Part shown: positions 1 through 28,104 of the stretch, one piece after another | Layout of the letters: every line of letters begins with the position of its first letter | Position numbering within the stretch: the stretch's first letter is position 1 | Assembly: GCA_965217775.1 (NCBI GenBank) | Contig: CBDCJH010000002.1 | Span: 2,752,001-2,816,000, forward strand | Origin: Acidobacteriota bacterium | GTDB lineage: Bacteria; Acidobacteriota; UBA6911; RPQK01; JAJDTT01 | DNA: 64,000 nucleotides | Reading direction: 5' to 3' | Made by a program: the position numbers and the translations under genes | The notes under the pieces: generated by a model | What the model was told of the DNA's origin: nothing | Databases searched by the model: none | Seen by the model: the letters and a program-made list of their open reading frames with translations, nothing else

Positions 1-567
1 GGTGGATTCACAAAAGGCAGTCCCGTCGATTCACCAAGAGGCTTTCCCCGATCTTTTTGCCTTTCATGCAGTTACGCCCATATCCCCAGATCCGCGGTGC
101 CGATCGGGGGAGATCGCAGGTGGACGGGAGCGCCCCCCCTTTTTGCCTCCCGGATCGGCACGGCGGTGTTGCGCCACTTACATTTGCGCAACACCCCCTG
201 GGAGGGTCGCTCCCGTCCCAAATATCCCTGCGGGAAGGCCCCTACGAAGAATACTGAAGGACTGTTGTGGCCATCCAAGGCGTCCGTTCCCCCAAGTGGT
301 GCAACATGATCTATGTAGGACCACAGGCTACAAGTGCCACTGTGGTACGCTTGAAGGGTGAAGATTCTCCGCGTCTGCCAGAGCGACACCGGCAAGCTCC
401 CTGAGATCCTGGTCGGGTGCTCCATCGTGTCACGCCCCGGCGGGGGGACTCTTGGACCGCCACCGTCCTCAAAGTCATCCAGTGGGGGGAGGATGCCGTC
501 CTGGTCCGCTATCCGGGCAAAGGTTAGACTGGAGGAAGATAGATAACCTGAAGGACAGGAGAATAGC

Positions 568-1267: not shown

Positions 1268-1576
1268 ATGAAGGAACCCAAGAAGGTCTTCCGGCCTCTG
1301 ACGGTTCAACAGTTCCGCGAATTGGTCGAGGCGGTGGACAACCCCTACCTGCAAGCCATGGTTGCGGTTATCGGCGGGACGGGGATTCGGAAAGGTGAAA
1401 CCTTGTCACTCACCTGGAAACGCGTGGACCTGAGTCGTCGGCTGCTGTGGGTGGAATTCACCAAGGACGACGAGGGAGATTCCGCAGTTCCCATGCGCTT
1501 GCCTGCATACGGGAGGCACAGGCGAACGAAGACACACAAACAAACCAGGCAACGGGTAGGAATCAGGGAGCAATGA
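1268..1576 (+). pseudogene. int: Tyrosine integrase remnant (element copy 1)
   Basis: TGIRKGETLSLTWKRVDL Box I motif; KEPKKVFRPLTVQQFR matches the integrase at 19729-20562; N-terminus and most of the C-terminus deleted. Confidence 0.85.
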
Positions 1577-1621
1577 TTCAAGCGGAGAATTAGGATAACC
1601 TGTTGAAAAGAAAGGACCAAT

Positions 1622-1668
1622 CCCGTAGCTCAGTTGGACAGAGCAACGGATTTCCAATCGCCGCTCCC
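1622..1668 (+). other. att junction: tRNA 5' half fused to half of a REP
   Basis: CCCGTAGCTCAGTTGGACAGAGCAACG (acceptor/D-arm like), core GATTTCCAATC at 1649-1659, then GCCGCTCCC REP arm; no T arm or 3' half. Confidence 0.8.
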
Positions 1669-1759
1669 CTTCGGCGACAAGAGAGTCCCCGCTCCTGACG
1701 AGTGCTATGATTGGGGCCGTCTCGGACTGAACAATTCTCTTGGCTTCTTTCCGAATCCC

Positions 1760-11475: not shown

Positions 11476-12891
11476 ATGTCAGGTGCAGCAGGATCGTTGA
11501 GCAGACCACTTGTTGCGAGCGTTCTCGCACTTACCCTGGCTTGTGCCGCGTGCGGTGAACCGGCTGAGGTTCTTGTGGGCAAGGAGCTTCTTGTCCTCGA
11601 AGGGGCCACTCTGATTGACGGAACCGGTGCCGGACCGCGCGAGGACAGCGTCATCGTGGTGGACGGCGACCGAATCATCAGGGTCGGAAGCGCGGGTGAT
11701 TTCCATTTCCCCGACTCGGCACGGCAAAGAGACGTTTCGGGCCACTTCGTGCTGCCGGGATTCATCGACATGCATGTCCATGTTCACCCCAAGGCTCGGA
11801 TCGAGACCGTGGAGGCGTTGCTTGAGTTCGGAGTGACCACGATACGCAGCCCGGGCGCCGCGCAAAGCGCCGGAGTCGAGCTCCGGGATCAGATCGAGGC
11901 GGGCCGGGTTCGGGGGCCGCGGATGATGACCGGCGCCGCCTTCATCGACGGTTCTCCGAGCCGATTCGACTGGACGGTGCCCGTGGCGACACCGGATGAG
12001 ATCCGGGACGTGGTTCGACAACAGGCTGCGGCGGGTGCCGACATGATCAAGCTGTACTGGGACGTGACCCCGGAGCTGACGGCCGCTGCGATTGAAGAGG
12101 CCCACAAGCTCGGTCTGAGGGTCGCCGGCCACCTCCGGGCGACGAGCTGGACCCAGGCGGCAAGACTGGGAATCGATGCCCTGGTCCACAGCGGTGCAGA
12201 GGGACCGACCTGGGAGCTGGTCCCCGAAAGGCACCGGGCCCAACTGAGGGCGCTGCCCTACCCGGAGTTCTACGCCCGTTGGCTCGAGTTGGTGGAGCTT
12301 GACGGCGATCTGATGAGTTCCTTGATTACTGCCCTCGTTGACAACAACGTGACGGTCGACCCGACTCTGGTCGTGATGGAGAGCCTCTACTTCGGTGACG
12401 ACCCGAAGGTTCTCGAGCGGCTCGAGCCGCAGCGGGCTCCGTCCTCGGTGGTCTCGCTTTGGGGTTCGGACTGGCGGCAGCGAAACCCGTTTGTTTTCAC
12501 CAACCCCATGGGAATCGCTCGGGACTTCACGTCCGGCAAGCCCGTATTCCCCGTCGCACTCCAGATCGTGCGGAGGCTTCATGAGGGGGGAGTGAGGCTG
12601 ACCGCAGGGAGCGACCTGGGAATGCCCTGGATCACGCCGGGCGTGAGCCTGCATCGGGAGCTAGAGCTCCTGGTCCAGGCCGGCATCGACGAGGCTGACG
12701 TGATCGTCATGGCGACCCGAAACGGCGCCGAGGGCCTGGGTCTGGAGGATCAGCTCGGAACCGTCGAAGCAGGGAAACTGGCCGACCTGGTCGTGCTCTC
12801 GGCGGATCCACTGTTGGACATCCGCAACACCCGCTCGGTGGCCGCCGTCTACAAGGCTGGCGAACTCCAGTATCAAGCCACGCCACTTTGA
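11476..12891 (+). CDS. Amidohydrolase-family lipoprotein (copy 1)
   Basis: LPGFIDMHVH, GADMIK and GTVEAGKLADLVVL motifs; lipobox. Confidence 0.9.
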   Translation: MSGAAGSLSRPLVASVLALTLACAACGEPAEVLVGKELLVLEGATLIDGTGAGPREDSVIVVDGDRIIRVGSAGDFHFPDSARQRDVSGHFVLPGFIDMHVHVHPKARIETVEALLEFGVTTIRSPGAAQSAGVELRDQIEAGRVRGPRMMTGAAFIDGSPSRFDWTVPVATPDEIRDVVRQQAAAGADMIKLYWDVTPELTAAAIEEAHKLGLRVAGHLRATSWTQAARLGIDALVHSGAEGPTWELVPERHRAQLRALPYPEFYARWLELVELDGDLMSSLITALVDNNVTVDPTLVVMESLYFGDDPKVLERLEPQRAPSSVVSLWGSDWRQRNPFVFTNPMGIARDFTSGKPVFPVALQIVRRLHEGGVRLTAGSDLGMPWITPGVSLHRELELLVQAGIDEADVIVMATRNGAEGLGLEDQLGTVEAGKLADLVVLSADPLLDIRNTRSVAAVYKAGELQYQATPL

Positions 12892-12926
12892 AACGGGCGC
12901 TGATGGTGATGCCCGGTAGAAAAAGG

Positions 12927-13015
12927 GTAGGAGCGGCGGTTTCCTAACCGCCGGCTTCCGGAGTGTCCGGGAACGAACGCGTATCGTGGGCGACGGGTTA
13001 TCGCCCTTCCTTTTT
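12927..13015. repeat. REP family 1a pair, empty homologue of the 19585 integration site
   Basis: GTAGGAGCGGCGGTTTCCTAACCGCC and GGGCGA-CGGGTTA-TCGCCC; context matches 19498-19595. Confidence 0.7.
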
Positions 13016-18011: not shown

Positions 18012-18084
18012 TCGGACATCACGATGTGCGCGAGAAATGGTGACGTTCGATGGGTCCGTCGGCTCCGTACTCCGTAGTCCGTCG

Positions 18085-19497
18085 ATGTCAGGAGCAGCAG
18101 GATTGCTGAGCAGACCTTCTATTGCGATCGCTCTCGCACTTACGCTGGCTTGTGCCGCGTGCGGTGAACCAGCCGAGGTGCTTGTGGGCGAGCGGCTTCT
18201 TGTCCTGGAAGGAGCCACTCTGATTGACGGCACCGGCACCGAACCGCGCGAGGACAGTGCCATCGTGGTGGACGGCGACCGAATCCTCAGGGTCGGCAAC
18301 ACCGGTGAATTCCATTTCCCCGACACGGCACGACGAAGAGAGGTTTCGGGCCACTTCGTGCTTCCAGGATTCATCGACATGCATGTCCATGTTCACCCCG
18401 AGGCTCGGATCGAGACCGTGGAGGCGTTGCTCGAGTTCGGAGTGACCACGATACGCAGCCCGGGCGCCGCTCAAAGCGCCGGCGTCGAGCTCCGGGATCA
18501 GATCGAGGCGGGCCAGGTTCGCGGTCCGCGGATGATTAGCGGCGCCGCTTTCATCAACGGGTCTCCTCGATTCGATTGGACGGTAGCCGTGGAGACGCCG
18601 GATGAGATCCGGGACGTGGTTCGACAACAGGCTGCGGCGGGCGCAGACATGATCAAGCTGTACTGGGACGTGACCCCGGAGCTGATGGCCGCTGCCATCG
18701 AAGAGGCCCACAGGCTGGGTCTGACGGTCGCCGGCCACCTTCGGGCAACGAGCTGGACCCAGGCGGCGCGAATGGGAATCGACGCCTTGCTCCACAGCGG
18801 CGCGGAAGGGCCGACCTGGGAGCTGGTCCCCGAAAGGTACCGGGCCCTACTGCGGGCACTACCCTATCGGGAGTTCTACGCCCGTTGGATCGAGTTGGTG
18901 GAGCTGGACGGCGAACTGATGAGCTCCTTGATCGCCGCTCTCGTTGCCAACAACGTGACGGTCGACCCGACTCTGGTCGCGATGGAAAGCCTCCACTTCG
19001 GTGACGACCCTAAGGTTCTCGAACGGCTCGAGCCTCAGCGGGCTCCGCCCGCGGTCGTCTCGCTTTGGGGTCCGGATTGGCAGGAGCGAAACCCGTTCGT
19101 CTTCACCAACCCGATGGGAGTCGTGCGGAACCTCACGTCCGGCAAGGACGTATTCCCCGTCGCACTCCAGATCGTGCGGAGGCTTCACGAGGGGGGAGTG
19201 AGGCTGACTGCAGGAACCGACGTGGGAACGCCCTGGATCACGCCGGGCGTGAGCCTGCATCGGGAGCTGGAGCTTCTGGTTCAGGCCGGCATCGACGAGG
19301 CTGACGTGATCGTCACGGCGACCCGAAACGGCGCCGAGGGCCTGGGTCTGGAGGACAGGCTCGGAACCGTCGAAGCCGGGAACCTGGCCGACCTGGTCGT
19401 ACTCTCGGCGGATCCGCTGTCGGACATCCGCAACACCCGTTCGGTGACCTCCGTTTACAAGGCCGGCGAACTCGTGTATCCGGCCGCGCCACCTTGA
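18085..19497 (+). CDS. Amidohydrolase-family lipoprotein (copy 2)
   Basis: Diverged paralogue of 11476-12891. Confidence 0.9.
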   Translation: MSGAAGLLSRPSIAIALALTLACAACGEPAEVLVGERLLVLEGATLIDGTGTEPREDSAIVVDGDRILRVGNTGEFHFPDTARRREVSGHFVLPGFIDMHVHVHPEARIETVEALLEFGVTTIRSPGAAQSAGVELRDQIEAGQVRGPRMISGAAFINGSPRFDWTVAVETPDEIRDVVRQQAAAGADMIKLYWDVTPELMAAAIEEAHRLGLTVAGHLRATSWTQAARMGIDALLHSGAEGPTWELVPERYRALLRALPYREFYARWIELVELDGELMSSLIAALVANNVTVDPTLVAMESLHFGDDPKVLERLEPQRAPPAVVSLWGPDWQERNPFVFTNPMGVVRNLTSGKDVFPVALQIVRRLHEGGVRLTAGTDVGTPWITPGVSLHRELELLVQAGIDEADVIVTATRNGAEGLGLEDRLGTVEAGNLADLVVLSADPLSDIRNTRSVTSVYKAGELVYPAAPP

Positions 19498-19595
19498 AAC
19501 GGGCGCTTATGGTGACACCCGGTAGAAAAAGGGCAAGCGGCGGTTTCCAACCGCCGAACTCCGGTGGAGCATTGAGGAATGGGCGACTGGAAGTC

Positions 19596-19616
19596 CGTTG
19601 CTCCGTCCAACTGAGA
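19596..19616 (-). other. tRNA 5'-half remnant in the att junction
   Basis: Minus strand TCTCAGTTGGACGGAGCAACG followed by GACTTCCAGTC; homologous to 1628-1659. Confidence 0.75.
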
Positions 19617-19728
19617 TAAGGTATAGATCCTTTATTTTCAACAGTTTATCCCATTTCTTAGGTCTAATCACTTTCCCTTTTTTGCTGCCCGTTGCCGGTT
19701 TGTTGCCTGTTGCGTTTGTGAGTCTTCG

Positions 19729-20562
19729 TTAGCCTGTGCCTCCCGAATGCTCTGGAGCGCATGCGAACTGACGTACCCCGCATACCGCATCGTCGTGCTG
19801 ATCGCCGAGTGCCCCATCAACTTCTGCACCGTTCTCACGTCCACCCCCTAGCATCAGCCAATGGCAGCAGAGGAATCGTCTCAGATCGGGAAAACCGACT
19901 TTCAACCCCACCTTCTCGGCAGCGCGACGCAACAGTTTGTCGGGAGTCACCCATCTCGTTCCCGTCCGGCTGTTGACGAAGACGTGTGGCGTGTTCAGGT
20001 AGCGAACCAGCCCGACCAGGTCGCGGAACTGCTGAACCGTTAGAGGCTGGAAGGCCTTCTTCGGCTCCTTCAGTTTGGGAAACCGCACCAGCGGGTGCGT
20101 ATCGATCTCCCCACACTCCAGCGCGTAGCAAAACAGCTTGCTGATGGCGGCGATGGCGCGGTTCACCGTGGCCAGTTTGACCTGTTTCTTTCTCTGGGCG
20201 ACGTAGCGGTGCAGGTCTTTGCGTTGGAACTCCTTCAGGGAAATGTTGCCCAGCACGGCGTTGAGCCTCTTGAACGAGAGCGAATAGCGGCGCAAGGAGC
20301 GCAATCGAGGTTTGCAATACTCCTCGATAAATCGCTCGTAGAAACTCCGGACCGTCCAGATCGTGCGGTTTCCTCCGGCGAATTCCCGCTTGAGCTGCTT
20401 CCAGGTGCCGTCCAGGATGCTGGACTCCACCCGAGTTTGGAGCGCCTGTGCGCTCCGGTAGTTGGGGGCGTACTTTCTGAGCCGACGGGATCCGTTCGGC
20501 CAGTACTTGCTGACGACGTATCGTCTCCTCCCCTGGCGATCCTTCACCTTATAGATGCCCAT
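19729..20562 (-). pseudogene. int: Tyrosine integrase (element copy 2), inactivated
   Basis: Arm-binding-like N-terminus; ATVNRAIAAISKLF; Box I deleted; PDLRR in place of HxLR; frameshift before VQKLMGHSAISTTMRY. Confidence 0.85.
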
Positions 20563-20955
20563 GCATCTCCTCCTTTCTGGATCCGGGTTCTTCGCCGTGG
20601 GGCGAATCGTACCAAGGCTCCAGAGAGAAACGGCGAATCTCTATTCTTTCCTGCGGGAAGTCCGTTAATTTCGGCTAACGGACAGACGAGGACGCCGGGC
20701 CCGGACCTTCACCACGAGGCCAGGCGAGACGCGCCCGATCCCCAAGCAGAAGTCTGCCCAAGCGGGCGCGCCCCACCAGGGGAGCGGGACCCGGTATCCT
20801 TCTTGAAAAGAAAACCCTTTGCAAAATCAGTTGGTGGACCTGCAGTCCGGGCGACGGTCGGGCCGCCGGCATCCTCCAGATCCGGTGCCGGGACCCCGGC
20901 GGCTGGCTTTTTTCTCGAGGAGTCGGCTTCGTAGTCTCCGAGGGAAGGAGATGCC

Positions 20956-22080
20956 ATGAGAATGAGAAACGGCGGCTGCGGCCTCCGAGGAGTTAGGGAA
21001 GCGGGTCTGGTGGCGCTTTTGTTGGTCTCGGCAACGGCTGTGAATGGACAATGGCTGTCCGTTTCGGATTTCGAGCGCTTCCAATTTTACAACGCCTGTC
21101 GCCCCATGGGACTGAGGAGTCACAGCGGCGGGTCGATCGATGCCGGCGCGGATGCCGGCACGTTGGAACATGAGGACGGACGGCCAGGAATGAATCTGGA
21201 TCCCATTGTGGACGTCGCCAAAAGCCGCTTGCGCGCAGAGCGCCTCTACTCATTGTTGGAAAGCGAGTCGAACGGGGCGGCCCTGGTGGTTTCCGTCGAT
21301 GTCAGGGCAGTTTCCCGCGACCTCGTGGCGTATGCCATCGGTCTCGAATACCACAAGCTCGTCACCGATGCCGCCAGCGGACTGGAGAAACTGACGGCCA
21401 CGTGGCGCAACAACTCGATCGTGTGCTGCGACCCCCTCGATCCCGAAAGCATCAGCGAACATCTCGCCCGCGGCCACCTCGATTTCTTCCTGGAGAAGTA
21501 CCGGCAAGTGAACGAGGAGGATTGCCGCCCGCCCTCATTGACGGCCACTGGACGGCTTTCCTGTGCTGGACAGTGGAGCGGCACGGAGTGCTGGATGGAG
21601 TTGTCCAACGTGCCCGGGTGCTACGTCTGGAGTGCTGCTCGCCTGCCGGAGCAGACTGTGACCTGGACGGGCGAGTGTGGCGGGGAACTCGCCCAAGCTC
21701 AGGGAACCCTCAAATGGGCCTGGGATCGGGGCCGGGGCGAGGAGACCGCCGAAGAGACCGGGCATCTGCGGGCCGGCAAGAAGTGGCGCGGCCAGTGGAT
21801 CAGGCGCTACGGGAACGGAACCGTCCACGAAGGGGAGGTTGTAGAGGGGAAGCGGCACGGACGGTGGGTCATTCGACGTGCGGATGGAGCCGTCGTCGAA
21901 GGCTCGTATGTGGAGGGCAAGCGGCACGGCCAGTGGGTCACTCGGCACAAGTCCGGCAAGCGAGAAGTGGTCACCTACAAACACGGCTGGCAAGGCAAAT
22001 CGACCAAGATTCCTGATGAGGACCCCAAAGAGGTCGAAGTCGATGAGAACACGCCGAGGGACGTGGATGGGGATAGGTGA
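20956..22080 (+). CDS. Secreted protein with MORN-like C-terminal repeats
   Basis: Signal peptide; repeated EG.(V/Y)VEGKRHG.W motifs; TWTGEC motif. Confidence 0.75.
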   Translation: MRMRNGGCGLRGVREAGLVALLLVSATAVNGQWLSVSDFERFQFYNACRPMGLRSHSGGSIDAGADAGTLEHEDGRPGMNLDPIVDVAKSRLRAERLYSLLESESNGAALVVSVDVRAVSRDLVAYAIGLEYHKLVTDAASGLEKLTATWRNNSIVCCDPLDPESISEHLARGHLDFFLEKYRQVNEEDCRPPSLTATGRLSCAGQWSGTECWMELSNVPGCYVWSAARLPEQTVTWTGECGGELAQAQGTLKWAWDRGRGEETAEETGHLRAGKKWRGQWIRRYGNGTVHEGEVVEGKRHGRWVIRRADGAVVEGSYVEGKRHGQWVTRHKSGKREVVTYKHGWQGKSTKIPDEDPKEVEVDENTPRDVDGDR

Positions 22081-22099
22081 GGGGAAGAGGAAGGGAGTG

Positions 22100-22196
22100 G
22101 CGCGATTTTATGAAGTCCTTCTTGTCCAAGAGCTCCATCGCATTTTCGAAGAGGGCCTTGTCCGGTGCGATGGTCTCCTCCCGGAGTTCCGCCCCC
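22100..22196 (-). pseudogene. Possible bamD N-terminal fragment
   Basis: PDKALFENAMELLDKKDFIKSR resembles the first BamD TPR (recalled, not searched). Confidence 0.4.
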
Positions 22197-22315
22197 TGTG
22201 GCTCAAGCGGCGTCTGAGGGCCGCCAGCTTGCCGGAGATTATCTCGCCGCACTCGTTCCACGTGTTGGTGGTCACGGATCAGCTCAGCCAGAACCTGCTG
22301 CTTGAGGACATCTAA
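22197..22315 (+). pseudogene. XerC/D-like recombinase C-terminal fragment
   Basis: LKRRLRAASLPEIISPHSFHV...LLLEDI; homologous to 25023-25100. Confidence 0.7.
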
Positions 22316-22585
22316 TACCTAGGAGCCTGCGCGGCAGAAATTAATCTACTGCGAAAGCGTAGAATCGGTCCATATTTCCCCGATTTCTCGGCGAATAGAA
22401 CAACTATGCACCTCCAAATCGTGAAAATCTGGCCTCGATTCTCCACTTTCTCGCTACGATCATTTCTACCGCGCAGACTCCAAGCCAACCACGCTTGCCC
22501 CCGATCCACTCTGAAGTCTTTGTACAGACCGCAGAGGGAGGGGGAGGTGGGACCATGTTTGCTACAATTCGGTTAAATCATTCCG

Positions 22586-23116
22586 GTGAACCGATCCAAT
22601 GAAGGGGGCGAAGTTCGATCCGTGAAAAAGTCCTCTGTCGAGATCTATGGGTTGGCCGTCTGCTTCGTTACGCTACTTTGTTTCATCATCGCCCTGGGAG
22701 TCGGTCTCTATGACCTGCTTCAGCTCGCCTACCCCGAGTTCACCCTGAATGCTTACGAGTACGAACGGCACCGGTCCAATGACTCATTCCGCGATTCACC
22801 TCGATCTGTGTCCTACGTTCAATGGTCGACTCCACCTGTCCGTGGGACAAGCCCGGACGATGGAAAAACCTATAGGGTCACTCACAGAGGAGTTCCAACG
22901 GTGCCGCAAGGAGGGCCGGAAATTACCGAGGATGAGACCACTCGAAGGCGGAAGGAGAGCTACCGTAGCGTGCTCCGAGTCGAACGCAGACACGCCCGCC
23001 AAAGTCTGGCGTTGGTGGGCATCGTGATGTTGATCGACGTTCTGGTTTTCCTTCCGCACTGGATCTTGGCGCGGCGACCAAGGGTATCGAGATATGACGG
23101 CAGACGTGTCCCGTAG
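22586..23116 (+). CDS. Hypothetical two-TM membrane protein
   Basis: EIYGLAVCFVTLLC...YPEFTL and a C-terminal TM ending in HW. Confidence 0.7.
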   Translation: MNRSNEGGEVRSVKKSSVEIYGLAVCFVTLLCFIIALGVGLYDLLQLAYPEFTLNAYEYERHRSNDSFRDSPRSVSYVQWSTPPVRGTSPDDGKTYRVTHRGVPTVPQGGPEITEDETTRRRKESYRSVLRVERRHARQSLALVGIVMLIDVLVFLPHWILARRPRVSRYDGRRVP

Positions 23117-23690
23117 CTTGATGTTTTTGCTGTTGTTCGGCGCGACGAGCGCCTCGGTTCACAATCAGGACCGCTGGAACGTCGCGGACGAGGAGATCGT
23201 GCGCTTGGCGCCCGCAGCATTCGAGGAGGTTCCACCGGCCATTCGGAAGACACTTTCCGACCAAGGCTGCTCGATCCCTCAGACCTGGGGCAACACAGGT
23301 CCGGGCTCGATCCCTCCGCCCTACGACCGGCCTCACAACGTCGTCTCAGGCGAGTTCATGGAAGCCGGACGAACGCAGTGGGCCGCGCTCTGCTCTCGGA
23401 ATCGATCATCAGCGATTGTTGTGATTGATAAGAACGGCCGAATCCGGGCCGAATTCGCATCCGCCCCGGACAGGAGTTATTTGCAAGGTATCGGGGGCGA
23501 AAAGATCGGCTATTCGCGTGCGTTGAGCCCGGCCGGGGCTGATTACATCCTGTCAGTCTACCAGGCCTACGGAGGACCGAAGCCGCCACCGATCGAGCAT
23601 CAAGGCATCGATGATGCCTTTCTTGAAAAGGCCTCCACGGTGCACTACTTCCACGAAGGAATGTGGCTGCGGTTGACTGGTGCGGACTGA
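23094..23690 (+). CDS. Hypothetical secreted protein
   Basis: Signal peptide; overlaps the upstream gene. Confidence 0.7.
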   Translation: MTADVSRSLMFLLLFGATSASVHNQDRWNVADEEIVRLAPAAFEEVPPAIRKTLSDQGCSIPQTWGNTGPGSIPPPYDRPHNVVSGEFMEAGRTQWAALCSRNRSSAIVVIDKNGRIRAEFASAPDRSYLQGIGGEKIGYSRALSPAGADYILSVYQAYGGPKPPPIEHQGIDDAFLEKASTVHYFHEGMWLRLTGAD

Positions 23691-23835
23691 GCCAGCGAGA
23701 CATCCCCTTTCCCGCCCCGTTGAACTGGCCGGGCGCTCCATTCGAGATCACGACTCGCCAGGACGACTCTTGGACATCGCGTGCCTGCGAACTCTATTCT
23801 GGAGTTTGTCCCCGGGAAGGGACTGTCTCATGGCA

Positions 23836-23873
23836 CACTCGTCGTTATGTTGAATGCCACATAACGACGAGTG
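23836..23873. repeat. Perfect 15-bp inverted repeat with TTATGT/ACATAA cores
   Basis: CACTCGTCGTTATGT-8 nt-ACATAACGACGAGTG. Confidence 0.85.
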
Positions 23874-24190
23874 GGTCAGGGTTCGAGCGTTGCCCTGCGG
23901 TGCTGGCCAAAGATAGACACAGCGCAAACACCATGTGTTCCGAACCTGGGGAACAAGAGAAAATGGGAAGAGTGAGTCAGCTTTCGAGAGCCGATGCTAC
24001 TGCCTGTTTGTTGCCTGTTCAGGATGTCGAACGTTGGGAGTCAACCACTTGACCGATTCGGCCACGAATCCGGTAAATGAATGAAAACGTTAACCTTCGG
24101 TAGTTATTGACTGTGGGGCAGTCGGGACTGGAAGTCGCCCCTCGTAGCCAAGGCACCGACCCATAGTCCGAAGCTGACGGCGTCGCTGCT

Positions 24191-24748
24191 CTACGGTTGT
24201 AGCTTCGCAATCGGGATCCGCAGGAAGAACACGCCCGGTCCTCCCTCCTGATCTTTGTCGATGTCGTAAAAAACCACGCCGATCGTCTTGTCGTCGAGTT
24301 GCACTGTTCGGGGACAGGCCCGGCCGTGGATCGCCCGGCCCGGGTTGTAGTACTCGAACACGCCATCCCATGTCTGCCCGTCGTCGTATGAGATGCGATA
24401 GCGGATGCGCTCCCCGCCAAAGCCGGGTCCAAGAATCTCCGAGGCCAGCAGCCAGCCGTTTTTCAGACCGACCATTTCGTGCCGCCAGCCCTGCGTGCTG
24501 ATGTCCGGAAAGCCGTCGATGGCCTTCCACGTCTTGGCGTTGTCCGTTGATCGGAGGCCGGCACCGCTGACGAACGTGCCTCGCGGAGTCTGCACGATCG
24601 GGATCAACCCGTGATCACGGCCATCGCCGAACGGTGTTGCTTTGGTAGTGACCGGGTCAAACACAAACGTCCGGTCGATCAACGACACGAGCCATTGCCC
24701 TGAGTTCAGTTCGGTAACGGGGTGTCTGATGACGGATCTGACTTCGGG
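24191..24748 (-). pseudogene. 3' part of the sialidase-fold gene (copy 2)
   Basis: Matches 27133-27690; 5' end replaced by a recombinase remnant. Confidence 0.9.
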
Positions 24749-26846: not shown

Positions 26847-26961
26847 AATCAGGGAGTCGGGCGCAGGGTATAGCCTCCGATAAAGGGAACTATGCGGGTC
26901 TGTCCGGTAAGGCGGATCGGAAACGAGGAAGGGTGTGTCGGCGTTCAGGAACCGATTCTGC

Positions 26962-27107
26962 TGCCTGTTTGTTGCCTGTTCAGAACGTCAAACATAGCGA
27001 GTCAACTACTTTACCGATTTGGCGAAGAACCCGGACAACATTGAAAACGTTAACGTTCGGTAGTTGTTGACTGTGGCACAGTCGGGAAGGAAAGTCCCCC
27101 CCTCCTA
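26962..27107. mobile_element. Right end (att junction) of a third REP-targeting element
   Basis: About 135 bp homologous to 24001-24136, fused to the half REP GTCCCCCCCTCCTA. Confidence 0.8.
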
Positions 27108-27132
27108 ACCCGATGCTGACGGTGTCGCTGCT

Positions 27133-28104
27133 CTACGGCTCCAGCTTCACAATCGGGATTCGCAGGAAGAACACACCCGGTCCTCCCTCCTGATCTTTGT
27201 CGATGTCGTAAAAGACCACGCCGATTGTCTTGTCGTCGAGCTGCACTGTTCGGGGACAGGCCCGGCCGTTGATCGCCCGGCCAGGGTTGTAGTACTCAAA
27301 CACGCCATCCCATGTCTGCCCGTCGTCGTATGAGATGCGATAGCGGATGCGCTCACCGCCAAAGCCTGGTCCGAGAATCTCCGACGCCAGCAGCCAGCCG
27401 TTTTTCAGACCGACCATTTCGTGCCGCCAGCCCTGCGTGCTGATGTCGGGAAAGCCGTCGATGGCCTTCCACGTCTTGCCGTTGTCCGTTGATCGGAGGC
27501 CGGCACCGCTGACGAACGTGCCTCGCGGGGTCTGCACGATCGGGATCAACCCGTGATCACGGCCATCGCCGAACGGTGTTGCTTTGGAAGTGGCCGGATC
27601 AAACACAAACGTCCGGTCGATCAACGACGTGAGCCATTGCCCTGAGTTCAGTTCGGTAACGGGGTGCCTGATGACGGATCTGACTTCGGGATCACGCGGG
27701 AATGGTTGCGGGTCGCTCCAGGATACTCCTTCGTCACTCGACAGGGAGTACAAGACAGACCGTGGTTCTTTCTGAGTGACCGGCGTATCCCAGCGGTTCC
27801 AGCAATGCACCAGGCGGCCGTCGCTCAGCGTCGTCAGCGAGCCCGGGTAGTAGGTCTTGTCGACAGTATGGACAAAGGGAACTGGCTCGGACCATGTCAT
27901 TCCTCCGTCCGACGATCGAGTGATGCGCAGGTCCACGTGATTCACTCGCCCGTACGTCACAACGATGGTCCCCGAGCGGGTGACACAGGCCGCCGGGTGA
28001 ATGTGCCCGTCGACCGGGACGGCAATCCGGACCGGTTTCAGTTGATGGTCGCTCGCGACGACCGTTGACACAGCGAATAAAGACAGCACGGCGAGTCGGT
28101 TCAT
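27133..28104 (-). CDS. Secreted sialidase-fold protein (copy 3)
   Basis: Full paralogue of 13045-14019. Confidence 0.85.
   Translation of the reverse strand: MNRLAVLSLFAVSTVVASDHQLKPVRIAVPVDGHIHPAACVTRSGTIVVTYGRVNHVDLRITRSSDGGMTWSEPVPFVHTVDKTYYPGSLTTLSDGRLVHCWNRWDTPVTQKEPRSVLYSLSSDEGVSWSDPQPFPRDPEVRSVIRHPVTELNSGQWLTSLIDRTFVFDPATSKATPFGDGRDHGLIPIVQTPRGTFVSGAGLRSTDNGKTWKAIDGFPDISTQGWRHEMVGLKNGWLLASEILGPGFGGERIRYRISYDDGQTWDGVFEYYNPGRAINGRACPRTVQLDDKTIGVVFYDIDKDQEGGPGVFFLRIPIVKLEP

Follow-up and report, generated by a model that had tools for sequence, protein, structure and literature searches.

The 64,000-nt stretch of Acidobacteriota DNA analysed here (the window; G000:C2:2752001-2816000, in a genome of 6.43 Mb with 62% G+C and two contigs) carries the remains of two copies of an integrative element, in each of which an integrase remnant is followed by a short arm resembling part of a transfer RNA (tRNA) gene and then by one half of a repetitive extragenic palindrome (REP). 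Searches with blastn and tblastn find integrase and arm together three times in the genome: in the two window copies and at C2:820125-821296 (copy 3), where the integrase is intact with 361 residues. The remnant of copy 1 is a 102-residue open reading frame (ORF 1268-1576), 87% identical to the intact integrase over residues 164-232 and 78% over residues 327-353 by tblastn; the arm starts 46 bases past its stop codon and leads into a REP cluster upstream of a metallophosphoesterase gene (ORF 1634-2608, Pfam Metallophos). The letters read CTCAGTTGGACAGAGCAACG at 1629-1648, GATTTCCAATC at 1649-1659 and GCCGCTCCCC at 1660-1669. Copy 2, on the minus strand, reads CTCAGTTGGACGGAGCAACG + GACTTCCAGTC + GCCC at 19615-19581 after its broken integrase gene, with two loop changes (GACTTCCAGTC) relative to copy 1.

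The arm was compared with the 62 RNA genes called by ARAGORN in the whole genome (61 tRNA genes and one transfer-messenger RNA, several of the calls being REP artefacts). Window positions 1622-1659 match linear positions 4-41 of tRNA-Arg(TCT) (C2:3954257-3954331) at 35 of 38 bases (E 9e-11), while the second-best matches, other tRNA-Arg genes, cover the D arm only. The segment runs from the last part of the acceptor strand through the D arm and the anticodon stem's 5′ strand to the 7-nt loop and the TC after it; it departs from the host gene at three bases, once in the D loop and twice in the anticodon loop, where CTTCTAA has become TTTCCAA. The arm of copy 2 agrees with positions 11-36 at 24 of 26 bases; its acceptor-stem part has decayed, leaving the D arm and anticodon arm alone recognisable. 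The pattern ACGGA[TC]TTC[CT]A[AG]TC has only four sites in the 6.43 Mb, one in each of the three element copies and one in the true tRNA gene. What lies at 1622-1659 is not a complete cloverleaf, as only linear positions 4-41 are present: ARAGORN calls no tRNA gene within the window, and Rfam at E ≤ 0.1 gives no match in window 1-28000 or in four of the collected element loci (L007, L019, L003, L002). A tRNA-Gly origin, considered since the loop contains the anticodon TCC, was dropped, since no more than 9 bases are common to the segment and the host tRNA-Gly(TCC). We are highly confident that window 1622-1659 is a worn-down 5′ part of tRNA-Arg(TCT), serving as the integrase-proximal attachment (att) arm, on the attR side, of a decayed element. 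The initial annotation had described the same series of sequences after both integrase remnants, and that description holds, with a resemblance far beyond chance; the form it assigned to the series, D arm plus anticodon stem, is found in both copies, with the small correction that the copy at 19581 has no recognisable acceptor-stem part, and its proposal of Arg-TCT as the ancestral isoacceptor agrees with the best match in the host set.

The sequence into which the arms run belongs to an abundant family: the genome has 130 sites of GGCGA-N7-TCGCC and 224 of GGCGG-N7-CCGCC, whereas two control palindromes of similar composition have 9 and 5, and the loops of the GGCGA type include TTTCCAG (53), TTTCCAA (27), TTTCTAG (13), and CTTCCAG (5). 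On contig C2 there are 225 such hairpins, with 111 of the 224 gaps between neighbours shorter than 200 bp. Short, GC-rich, palindromic, numerous and clustered, these sequences have the characters of REPs, and the sites examined individually lie between genes. Three matches to the Y1 transposase (PF01797) are present in the genome, one followed by a REP hairpin within ~65 nt and another with related hairpins on its flanks. ARAGORN reads REP pairs at G000:C2:117489-117577 (89 nt) and C2:4661454-4661548 (95 nt) as "tRNA-Gly(tcc)", taking the REP loop TTTCCAA for an anticodon loop; a number of unusual "tRNA-Ser(gga)" calls likewise fall on REP hairpins, and all these calls are annotation artefacts. 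Because ARAGORN itself calls REP pairs tRNA-Gly(tcc), the REP hairpin can be said to have the form of an anticodon arm.

Both junctions of each copy can be placed within such hairpins. The identity between att arms and REP ends at both sides of an 11-bp core block (GA + 7 nt + TC), and the core matches at the two ends of each copy, copies 1 and 3 having the loop TTTCCAA and copy 2 CTTCCAG. By pattern, seven places in the genome have an orphan REP left half whose own right half is not next to it; four of these continue into one conserved sequence, CCG[TA]C...CAGTCAA...CCGGGTTCTTCGCCGAATCGG..., and three of the four pair with right ends, at C2:798853-798865 (copy 3, 22.4 kb), window 24126-24138 (copy 2, 4.5 kb), and C2:2751715-2751727 (copy 1). 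The last reads GGGGCGATTTCCAATC then CCGACCG (L003 3711-3727) and lies in a REP half; it is the other end of copy 1 that had been predicted as GGCGATTTCCAATC, found 273-285 bases left of the window, where ARAGORN calls no tRNA gene. The orthologous REP cluster in the congeneric genome G059 reads GGCGATTGGAAATC, then GCCGCTCCCCTTCGGCGG.... From the extent of the 11-bp core, we presume that crossover takes place within it and that the 7-nt "loop" TTTCCAA is the overlap. The integrase gene of copy 2 (19668-20562) survives as residues 1-186, 237-303 and 303-361 in different frames by tblastn, without residues ~187-236 and hence without the first catalytic arginine. Of an Islander-type element, defined by an integrase, a regenerated tRNA gene and a displaced cognate fragment of equal orientation, the window copies have no regenerated tRNA gene, their target being a REP.

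Features of the two window copies and a solitary arm remnant (window coordinates; linear positions are those of tRNA-Arg(TCT)).
Feature	Position	Strand	Basis
Copy 1, decayed remnant of ~1.9 kb	1-1659, starting 273 bases left of the window (G000:C2:2751728)	+	Left end, homologous internal blocks
Conserved internal block with GC-rich dyad of ~100 nt (at ~125-225)	44-251	+	Seven aligned small elements
Integrase remnant, residues ~164-232 and C-terminal tail of the 361-residue protein	1268-1576	+	ORF list, tblastn
Fossil 5′ part of tRNA-Arg(TCT), linear positions 4-41	1622-1659	+	35/38 identity, not an ARAGORN or Rfam tRNA
11-bp core GATTTCCAATC, common to element arm and REP	1649-1659	+	Identical 11 bases at the left junction
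Split REP's right half (GCC...) and next REP-like palindrome, on the host side	1660-1697	+	Orthologous cluster in G059
Host REP pair at copy 2: right half of the split hairpin and second hairpin GGCGGTTGGAAACCGCC	19536-19584	-	Uninterrupted form in G059 (L113)
Copy 2, whole span	19585-24136	-	Pattern and alignment
Copy 2 right end: tRNA-derived arm (linear positions 11-41), core GACTTCCAGTC at 19585-19595	19585-19615	-	24/26 identity
Copy 2 body of ~4.5 kb: broken integrase gene, unnamed ORFs, conserved left arm at the far end	19596-24125	-	tblastn, alignment
Left junction of copy 2: core repeat, GACTGGAAGTC when read on the plus strand, and left REP half GCCCC...	24126-24143	-	Comparison with G059
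Solitary left-arm remnant joined to a different REP-like half (GGGGGACTTTCCTTC)	26920-27106	-	Alignment

Empty sites were sought in seven congeneric loci each for copies 3 and 2. At the copy 3 site, G059 has, between the same genes, the left flank running exactly into the right flank by way of an unbroken GGGGCGATTTCCAATCGCCC, with the pair's second hairpin next; the REP is intact in three of the seven loci (G059, G055, G058), and the other four have other REP content. At the copy 2 site, G059 (L113) has GGGCGACTGGAAATCGCCCC uninterrupted between the same flanks, this being one of the seven loci, and the element is there in none of them. In G059 an intact REP also lies exactly at the left junction of copy 1, an insertion that is shared by G055 (L097; flank 98% identical). 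Empty sites hold a whole REP and no tRNA sequence. Contigs from public sequencing runs agree for copy 3, since its left and right flanks are contiguous in X4, X15, and X17, and one X1 contig spans the occupied right junction without a difference; the contigs from RNA libraries that match the integrase derive from diverged copies and are not a sign of transcription. Separately, G052 (L101 / L008; C1, ~4617001-4623933) has a related copy with core TTTCTAG and a 95% identical integrase in another REP of the copy 1 cluster, an independent hit on the REP cluster upstream of the orthologous metallophosphoesterase gene.

To follow the arm beyond this genome, 52 loci with related integrases were collected, nearly all from Acidobacteriota metagenome-assembled genomes (MAGs), with 28 in one record and 16 in another. 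A 22-base arm motif follows the integrase in 29 of the 52, and 27 of these run into REP-like right halves, while two (L043, L047) run into a complete tRNA-Arg(TCT). Reading 17 of the 23 motif-less loci by eye gave 11 with a diverged arm and a REP junction; the other six are cut by contig ends, truncated, or, in one case (L051, an archaeal contig at 28% identity), followed by tRNA-Leu. The arm is thus found after the integrase in all three G000 copies and at 38 related REP-junction loci (27 by motif and 11 by eye). Because it follows the integrase at many loci, and because the empty sites hold a whole REP, the arm is DNA of the element and not of the host.

The locus L043 lies in G058, a genome of the same genus, and its integrase is 85% identical. 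Here a 19-base anticodon-arm pattern occurs twice, ~47 kb apart. The far copy (attL) consists of the host promoter flank and tRNA positions 1-41, then a left arm homologous to that in G000, and the near copy (attR) of the integrase, the element's own 5′ half and the host 3′ half, which ARAGORN calls as tRNA-Arg(TCT). This is a tRNA-integrated island by the Islander definition. Its outer flanks have their orthologues on either side of the intact tRNA-Arg(TCT) gene in G000, and this gene is on that account the empty site for the tRNA-resident form. The second such locus, L047, is a 1.9-kb contig of a MAG labelled Rhodothermales, with an integrase fragment 85% identical and then a complete tRNA-Arg(TCT) near-identical to that of Acidobacteriota; it is probably a mis-binned contig and not a transfer between phyla.

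More distant relatives are linked to tRNA genes as well. Among 137 genomes of the class, matches at E ≤ 1e-30 were found in 53, and 22 of the 30 loci listed have a tRNA gene after the integrase, within ~100 bp except for one at 640 bp. The tRNA is co-oriented in five of the 22, so that the element carries a 5′ half (Arg-TCT twice, Arg-TCG, Thr-CGT, Leu-CAA), and convergent in 17, the usual 3′-half type (Arg, Thr, Leu, Ser); the remaining eight, with no tRNA gene there, comprise copies of REP type, truncated genes and a partial tRNA-Arg(TCT) fragment. A tree of 57 integrases (IQ-TREE quick search, LG+C20; L012 and L040 with internal stops, matches spanning ≤300 query residues and two duplicates left out) places the 34 REP-type copies in one clade with a Shimodaira-Hasegawa-like approximate likelihood ratio (SH-aLRT) support of 95, so that one label change is needed. 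The sister of this clade is the tRNA-Arg(TCT) copy of G058 (98), and next outward are two copies from other genera with a co-oriented tRNA-Arg (TCT or TCG) (100). All integrases linked to a convergent tRNA fall outside, and everything outside the REP clade adjoins tRNA-Arg, -Thr, -Leu or -Ser genes. A REP-targeting clade nested among tRNA-targeting integrases, the support that the initial annotation had named, is thus what the 34 of 57 rows and their tRNA-Arg(TCT) sister form.

In ten related loci outside G000 the left arm lies ~1.4-2.9 kb upstream of the integrase start; the element length is 2.7-3.6 kb in the seven measured, and one genome holds at least 28 loci. The integrase is the sole ORF with a Pfam hit and the only recognisable gene of the small elements, which show no DDE or DEDD transposase. 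Ten other ORFs of L007 and L019, from the 1.5-kb non-integrase part, have no Pfam hit, and no excisionase was found in the small copies. The 40 unique right ends of REP type have 11 different 7-nt loops and three kinds of REP right half (TCGCC, TCCCC, CCCCC), or 20 distinct junction strings counting single variants, and the loop is identical at both ends wherever both were seen (the G000 copies; L007, L008, L024, L026). Two of the cores, CTAACAG and CTGTTAG, are reverse complements and alternate among nearest-relative integrases on the tree (e.g., L027 and L028). In the MAG record with at least 28 loci, identical integrase proteins are found at different places (L013/L014, L020/L023, L024/L025), which suggests recent transposition there.

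The carried tRNA half is a fossil, best preserved beside the core. When the 40 right ends, taken by fixed offsets, were aligned with MAFFT to the host tRNA, mean identity along the arm was as follows: acceptor strand 0.49; D-stem strands 0.83 and 0.93; D loop 0.80; anticodon stem, 5′ strand, 0.86; anticodon loop 0.60; the two bases after it 0.89; and the positions farther on 0.23. All D-stem pairs are kept in 22 of the 40, and the GCGCCC of the acceptor stem is still kept in some subfamilies.

The intact integrase (P0001) matches Pfam Phage_integrase (PF00589, E 1.1e-26) and an N-terminal SAM-like domain, and its catalytic residues R204, K229, H289, R292, H315 and Y324 are invariant in 18 relatives. 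The structural model (mean predicted local distance difference test score 85.5) has a small N-terminal domain made of strands 3-7, 13-20 and 27-32 and helix 35-51. Foldseek finds lambda Int, XerA, and Tn1549 Int at E ~1e-13 to 1e-11; full-length lambda integrase aligns with the model across 341-349 columns, and lambda Int 75-356 superposes on it with a root-mean-square deviation of 3.4 Å. In both arms of REP-type and tRNA-type elements alike, AACAGGCA (≤1 mismatch) occurs ~95-130 bp from the core, over a background of 0.054 per 200 nt. It is paired at a distance of 11 nt (10 nt in one pair) in 14 of 15 left arms, and present at least once in 16 of 16 right arms, eight with pairs 11 nt apart, four with pairs 7 nt apart, and four with a single motif. 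We take these motifs as candidate arm-type integrase sites on the strength of their placement, and the integrase would then form a lambda-like heterobivalent system.

Taken together, the tRNA homology, both junctions, the empty sites, the tRNA-resident sister and the nested phylogeny support a switch of target, and the element family very probably moved from tRNA-Arg(TCT) to REP hairpins. The ancestral element, in the form still seen in G058, would have integrated into tRNA-Arg(TCT) by tyrosine-integrase recombination centred on the anticodon loop; carrying tRNA positions 1-41 of its own, it would rebuild the gene at the integrase end. In the switched lineage, the same lambda-type integrase module would recombine with REP hairpins. 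As a duplex, the REP may mimic the anticodon arm, with inverted half-sites ending in GA...TC around a 7-bp spacer YTTCYAR that is one to three changes from CTTCTAA. The arm sites would hold attP together, and the core sites would be the inverted GGA/TCC flanking a 7-bp overlap, so that integration would split the REP within GA-N7-TC and leave the 11-bp core at both ends. Freed from selection as a tRNA, the carried half would decay, the acceptor strand first, with the part beside the core conserved. Since REPs exist in hundreds of copies, the outcome would be a multi-copy element of 2.7-3.6 kb resembling an insertion sequence (IS). Because REP and anticodon arm have the GA-N7-TC frame in common, REP loops lie one to three changes away from CTTCTAA, and ARAGORN makes the "tRNA-Gly(tcc)" calls, we infer that the likeness of the REP to the anticodon arm is what made the shift possible.

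A further step concerns the overlap itself, and we give about an even chance to the idea that the element retargets itself, its attP core being a fossil anticodon arm whose 7-bp overlap is rewritten by the REP last occupied. A REP loop differing in the middle of the overlap but agreeing at both overlap ends would give a heteroduplex on integration, and after replication and excision the element would leave carrying the loop of its target. Such rewriting would explain the roughly dozen core variants, the alternation of CTAACAG and CTGTTAG, and the rise from one tRNA copy to at least 28 REP copies.

The same element and history could also go with recognition of the REP as a folded single-stranded hairpin, in the way of an integron integrase and attC. 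The targets are strong hairpins with a stem of 5-7 bp and a loop of 5-7 nt, their stems vary (GGCGA, GGGGGAC and CCCCC types) while the shape stays constant, and an integron integrase structure, 2a3v, is among the fold matches at rank 11. Such folding is nevertheless unlikely, as lambda integrase, arm-binding domain included, is the best fold match over the full length, the paired arm-type motifs on both arms are the apparatus of duplex attP × attB recombination, the attP of the element (ACGGA-N7-TCCCG) is a poor hairpin, and the sister element uses an ordinary tRNA gene. The REP is probably recognised as duplex DNA, and the 7-nt loop would be the strand-exchange overlap. Two accounts would change the history as well. 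Were the REP family descended from solo att scars, REPs would themselves be derived from a tRNA, and both the resemblance of REP loops to the anticodon loop and the existence of solitary arm remnants would be accounted for; yet REP stems (GGCGA/TCGCC, GGCGG/CCGCC) are unlike the tRNA stem and come without other element sequence, 130 and 224 REP sites stand against three element copies, REPs stand at orthologous sites in G058 although the candidates scored there with the integrase query include the tRNA-resident copy only, and tRNA-resident forms lie outside the REP clade on the tree, all of which leaves this direction very improbable. That a host tRNA gene was destroyed in place, for instance by REP invasion, and neighbours integrase fragments by chance is hardly credible, even though tRNA fragments are common near integrases: the fragment accompanies the integrase at no fewer than 41 different places, the empty sites are whole REPs without tRNA sequence, and an intact tRNA-Arg(TCT) is present elsewhere in the genome.

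Several observations weigh against a switch from tRNA-Arg(TCT) to REPs as we describe it, or against parts of it. The grounds for the label "REP" are copy number, palindromic form, clustering and three homologues of the Y1 transposase, not a demonstrated link to REP-associated Y1 transposases. The tree comes from a quick search in which deep branches are long and partly unresolved, the nesting resting on well-supported inner nodes, and all of its REP-type rows are from one genus and hence not independent. At copy 1, G059 has ~140 bp more REP cluster between the two junction points, and the right flank follows a REP with a complementary loop; because of the additional cluster sequence, copy 1 needs an extra deletion or a different ancestral cluster. 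Neither an excised circle nor an attP junction is present among the public-run contigs, the ends of copy 3 lying too far apart for one stretch, and the integrase genes of both window copies are dead. Finally, cleavage positions, overlap and arm-site function are deduced from sequence only.

Other traces of the family are found in and beyond the window. Further solitary left arms, besides the remnant in the table, lie at C2:4137023, 1548568, 4125344, and 800607, some of them joined to other REP-like halves, and the host flank past the left end of copy 2 (24139-24230) resembles the flank past the solitary arm of the window (~27107-27200). The stretch 19536-19584, downstream of an unnamed 486-residue ORF (18037-19497), has many matching copies in the genome; the 3′ part of this ORF and its REP-bearing downstream sequence are also part of a segmental duplication, in which window 11695-12961 and 18300-19581 are 90% identical at a distance of ~6.6 kb upstream. 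Five ORFs in or near copy 2, including 20956-22080, 22586-23116, and 23094-23690, have no Pfam match. Copy 3 is a 22.4-kb composite (G000:C2:798866-821284; L001, L002) with a second, coreless left arm at C2:800607 and duplicated internal blocks, and it holds two insertion-sequence families of ~1.77 kb (803160-804925) and ~2.0 kb (810432-812432), each with many near-identical copies in the genome. Upstream of its integrase (L002 ~1200-1620; G000:C2:819700-820120), one frame looks helix-turn-helix- or excisionase-like by eye, of which the last ~20 codons alone are common to small elements.

The conserved internal block of ~200 nt in copy 1 also occurs at L007 2115-2326 and L001 17667-17865, with ~10 copies in G000, all inside element remnants and in differing orientation. 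Across the seven aligned small elements, 55-78% of its columns are invariant, compared with 77-92% for the integrase gene, so that the two are conserved to roughly equal degrees. Its dyad consists of a 19-bp outer stem and two inner hairpins and has no Rfam or Pfam match; for 16 copies, RNAalifold gives 51 pairs, two of them with compensatory changes. Because the block is too conserved, RNA, DNA structure and protein-binding site are not separable.

The acquisition of new targets by integrases is usually reconstructed from distant comparisons, while here the steps stand side by side in one genus: an element in tRNA-Arg(TCT), the same module with a decaying tRNA half in REPs, and a radiation over further REP types. 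This offers a testable account of target switching, in which the dyad geometry and the core are kept and the overlap is free to change, and a route from a single-copy island integrase to a multi-copy, transposon-like element that reshapes intergenic regions. If the rewriting of the overlap is true, the integrase would be a natural one that is re-programmed via its DNA site and not its protein. Integrase/att pairs with different natural cores may be of interest for integrase retargeting. For annotation there is a warning, as half-tRNAs beside integrases need not mark tRNA targets, and REP pairs can be miscalled as tRNA genes.

Crossover in the anticodon loop and islands flanked by tRNA fragments are standard; the Islander "A" class consists of genomic islands and prophages whose lambda-type tyrosine integrases reportedly recombine within the anticodon loop of a tRNA gene. 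In the Islander data, 2083 attP sites among 3919 islands are anticodon-centred, and 159 islands have a 5′ tRNA fragment against 3760 with a 3′ fragment. The element described here is like these islands in its heterobivalent integrase beside the att site, its crossover in a 7-nt loop within a symmetric stem, and the tRNA piece that it carries, and its relative in G058 is an ordinary member of the anticodon-loop islands; it is unlike them in its REP target, in carrying the rare 5′ part, in rebuilding no gene, and in its many copies per genome. Tycheposons of Prochlorococcus are likewise tyrosine-recombinase elements with partial-tRNA flanks and with tandem and degenerate copies seeding islands; in the passages of their description that we cite, they stay at tRNA and tmRNA genes, and no REP targets are described (bioRxiv 10.1101/2020.12.28.424599).

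Insertion specific to REPs is known from the main-text passages of PMC1525189 for IS3 (IS1397/ISKpn1, ISPsy8), IS110 (IS621, ISPa11, ISPpu9/10), IS4, IS256, and IS5 members, passages in which the word "tyrosine" is absent; IS110 is reported to use a bridge RNA (PMC11208160). A full-text literature search gave no report of a tyrosine integrase targeting REPs, a result that for PMC1525189 extends to those main-text passages, its supplementary tables possibly listing more. With our element, tyrosine integrases join the enzymes for which exploitation of REPs is known. Like the REP-targeting insertion sequences, it inserts precisely into REP palindromes and uses an intergenic target that is multi-copy and "safe", but they use DDE or DEDD transposases where it has a tyrosine integrase with att arms, and, unlike theirs, its target recognition appears to be inherited from a tRNA site.

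Lambda integrates at secondary att sites. The CTnDOT enzyme IntDOT is reported to be a mismatch-tolerant tyrosine recombinase (PMC2034462). With both systems, the present element has in common the use of look-alike sites that share a core and an overlap that can be inherited from the target, while it differs in that the secondary class of site has now become the primary one and has driven an expansion in copy number with around a dozen core variants. Finally, integron integrases are also tyrosine recombinases acting on imperfect palindromes of variable sequence, as in attC, but they have no arm-type sites and act on folded single strands, whereas the enzyme described here looks lambda-like.

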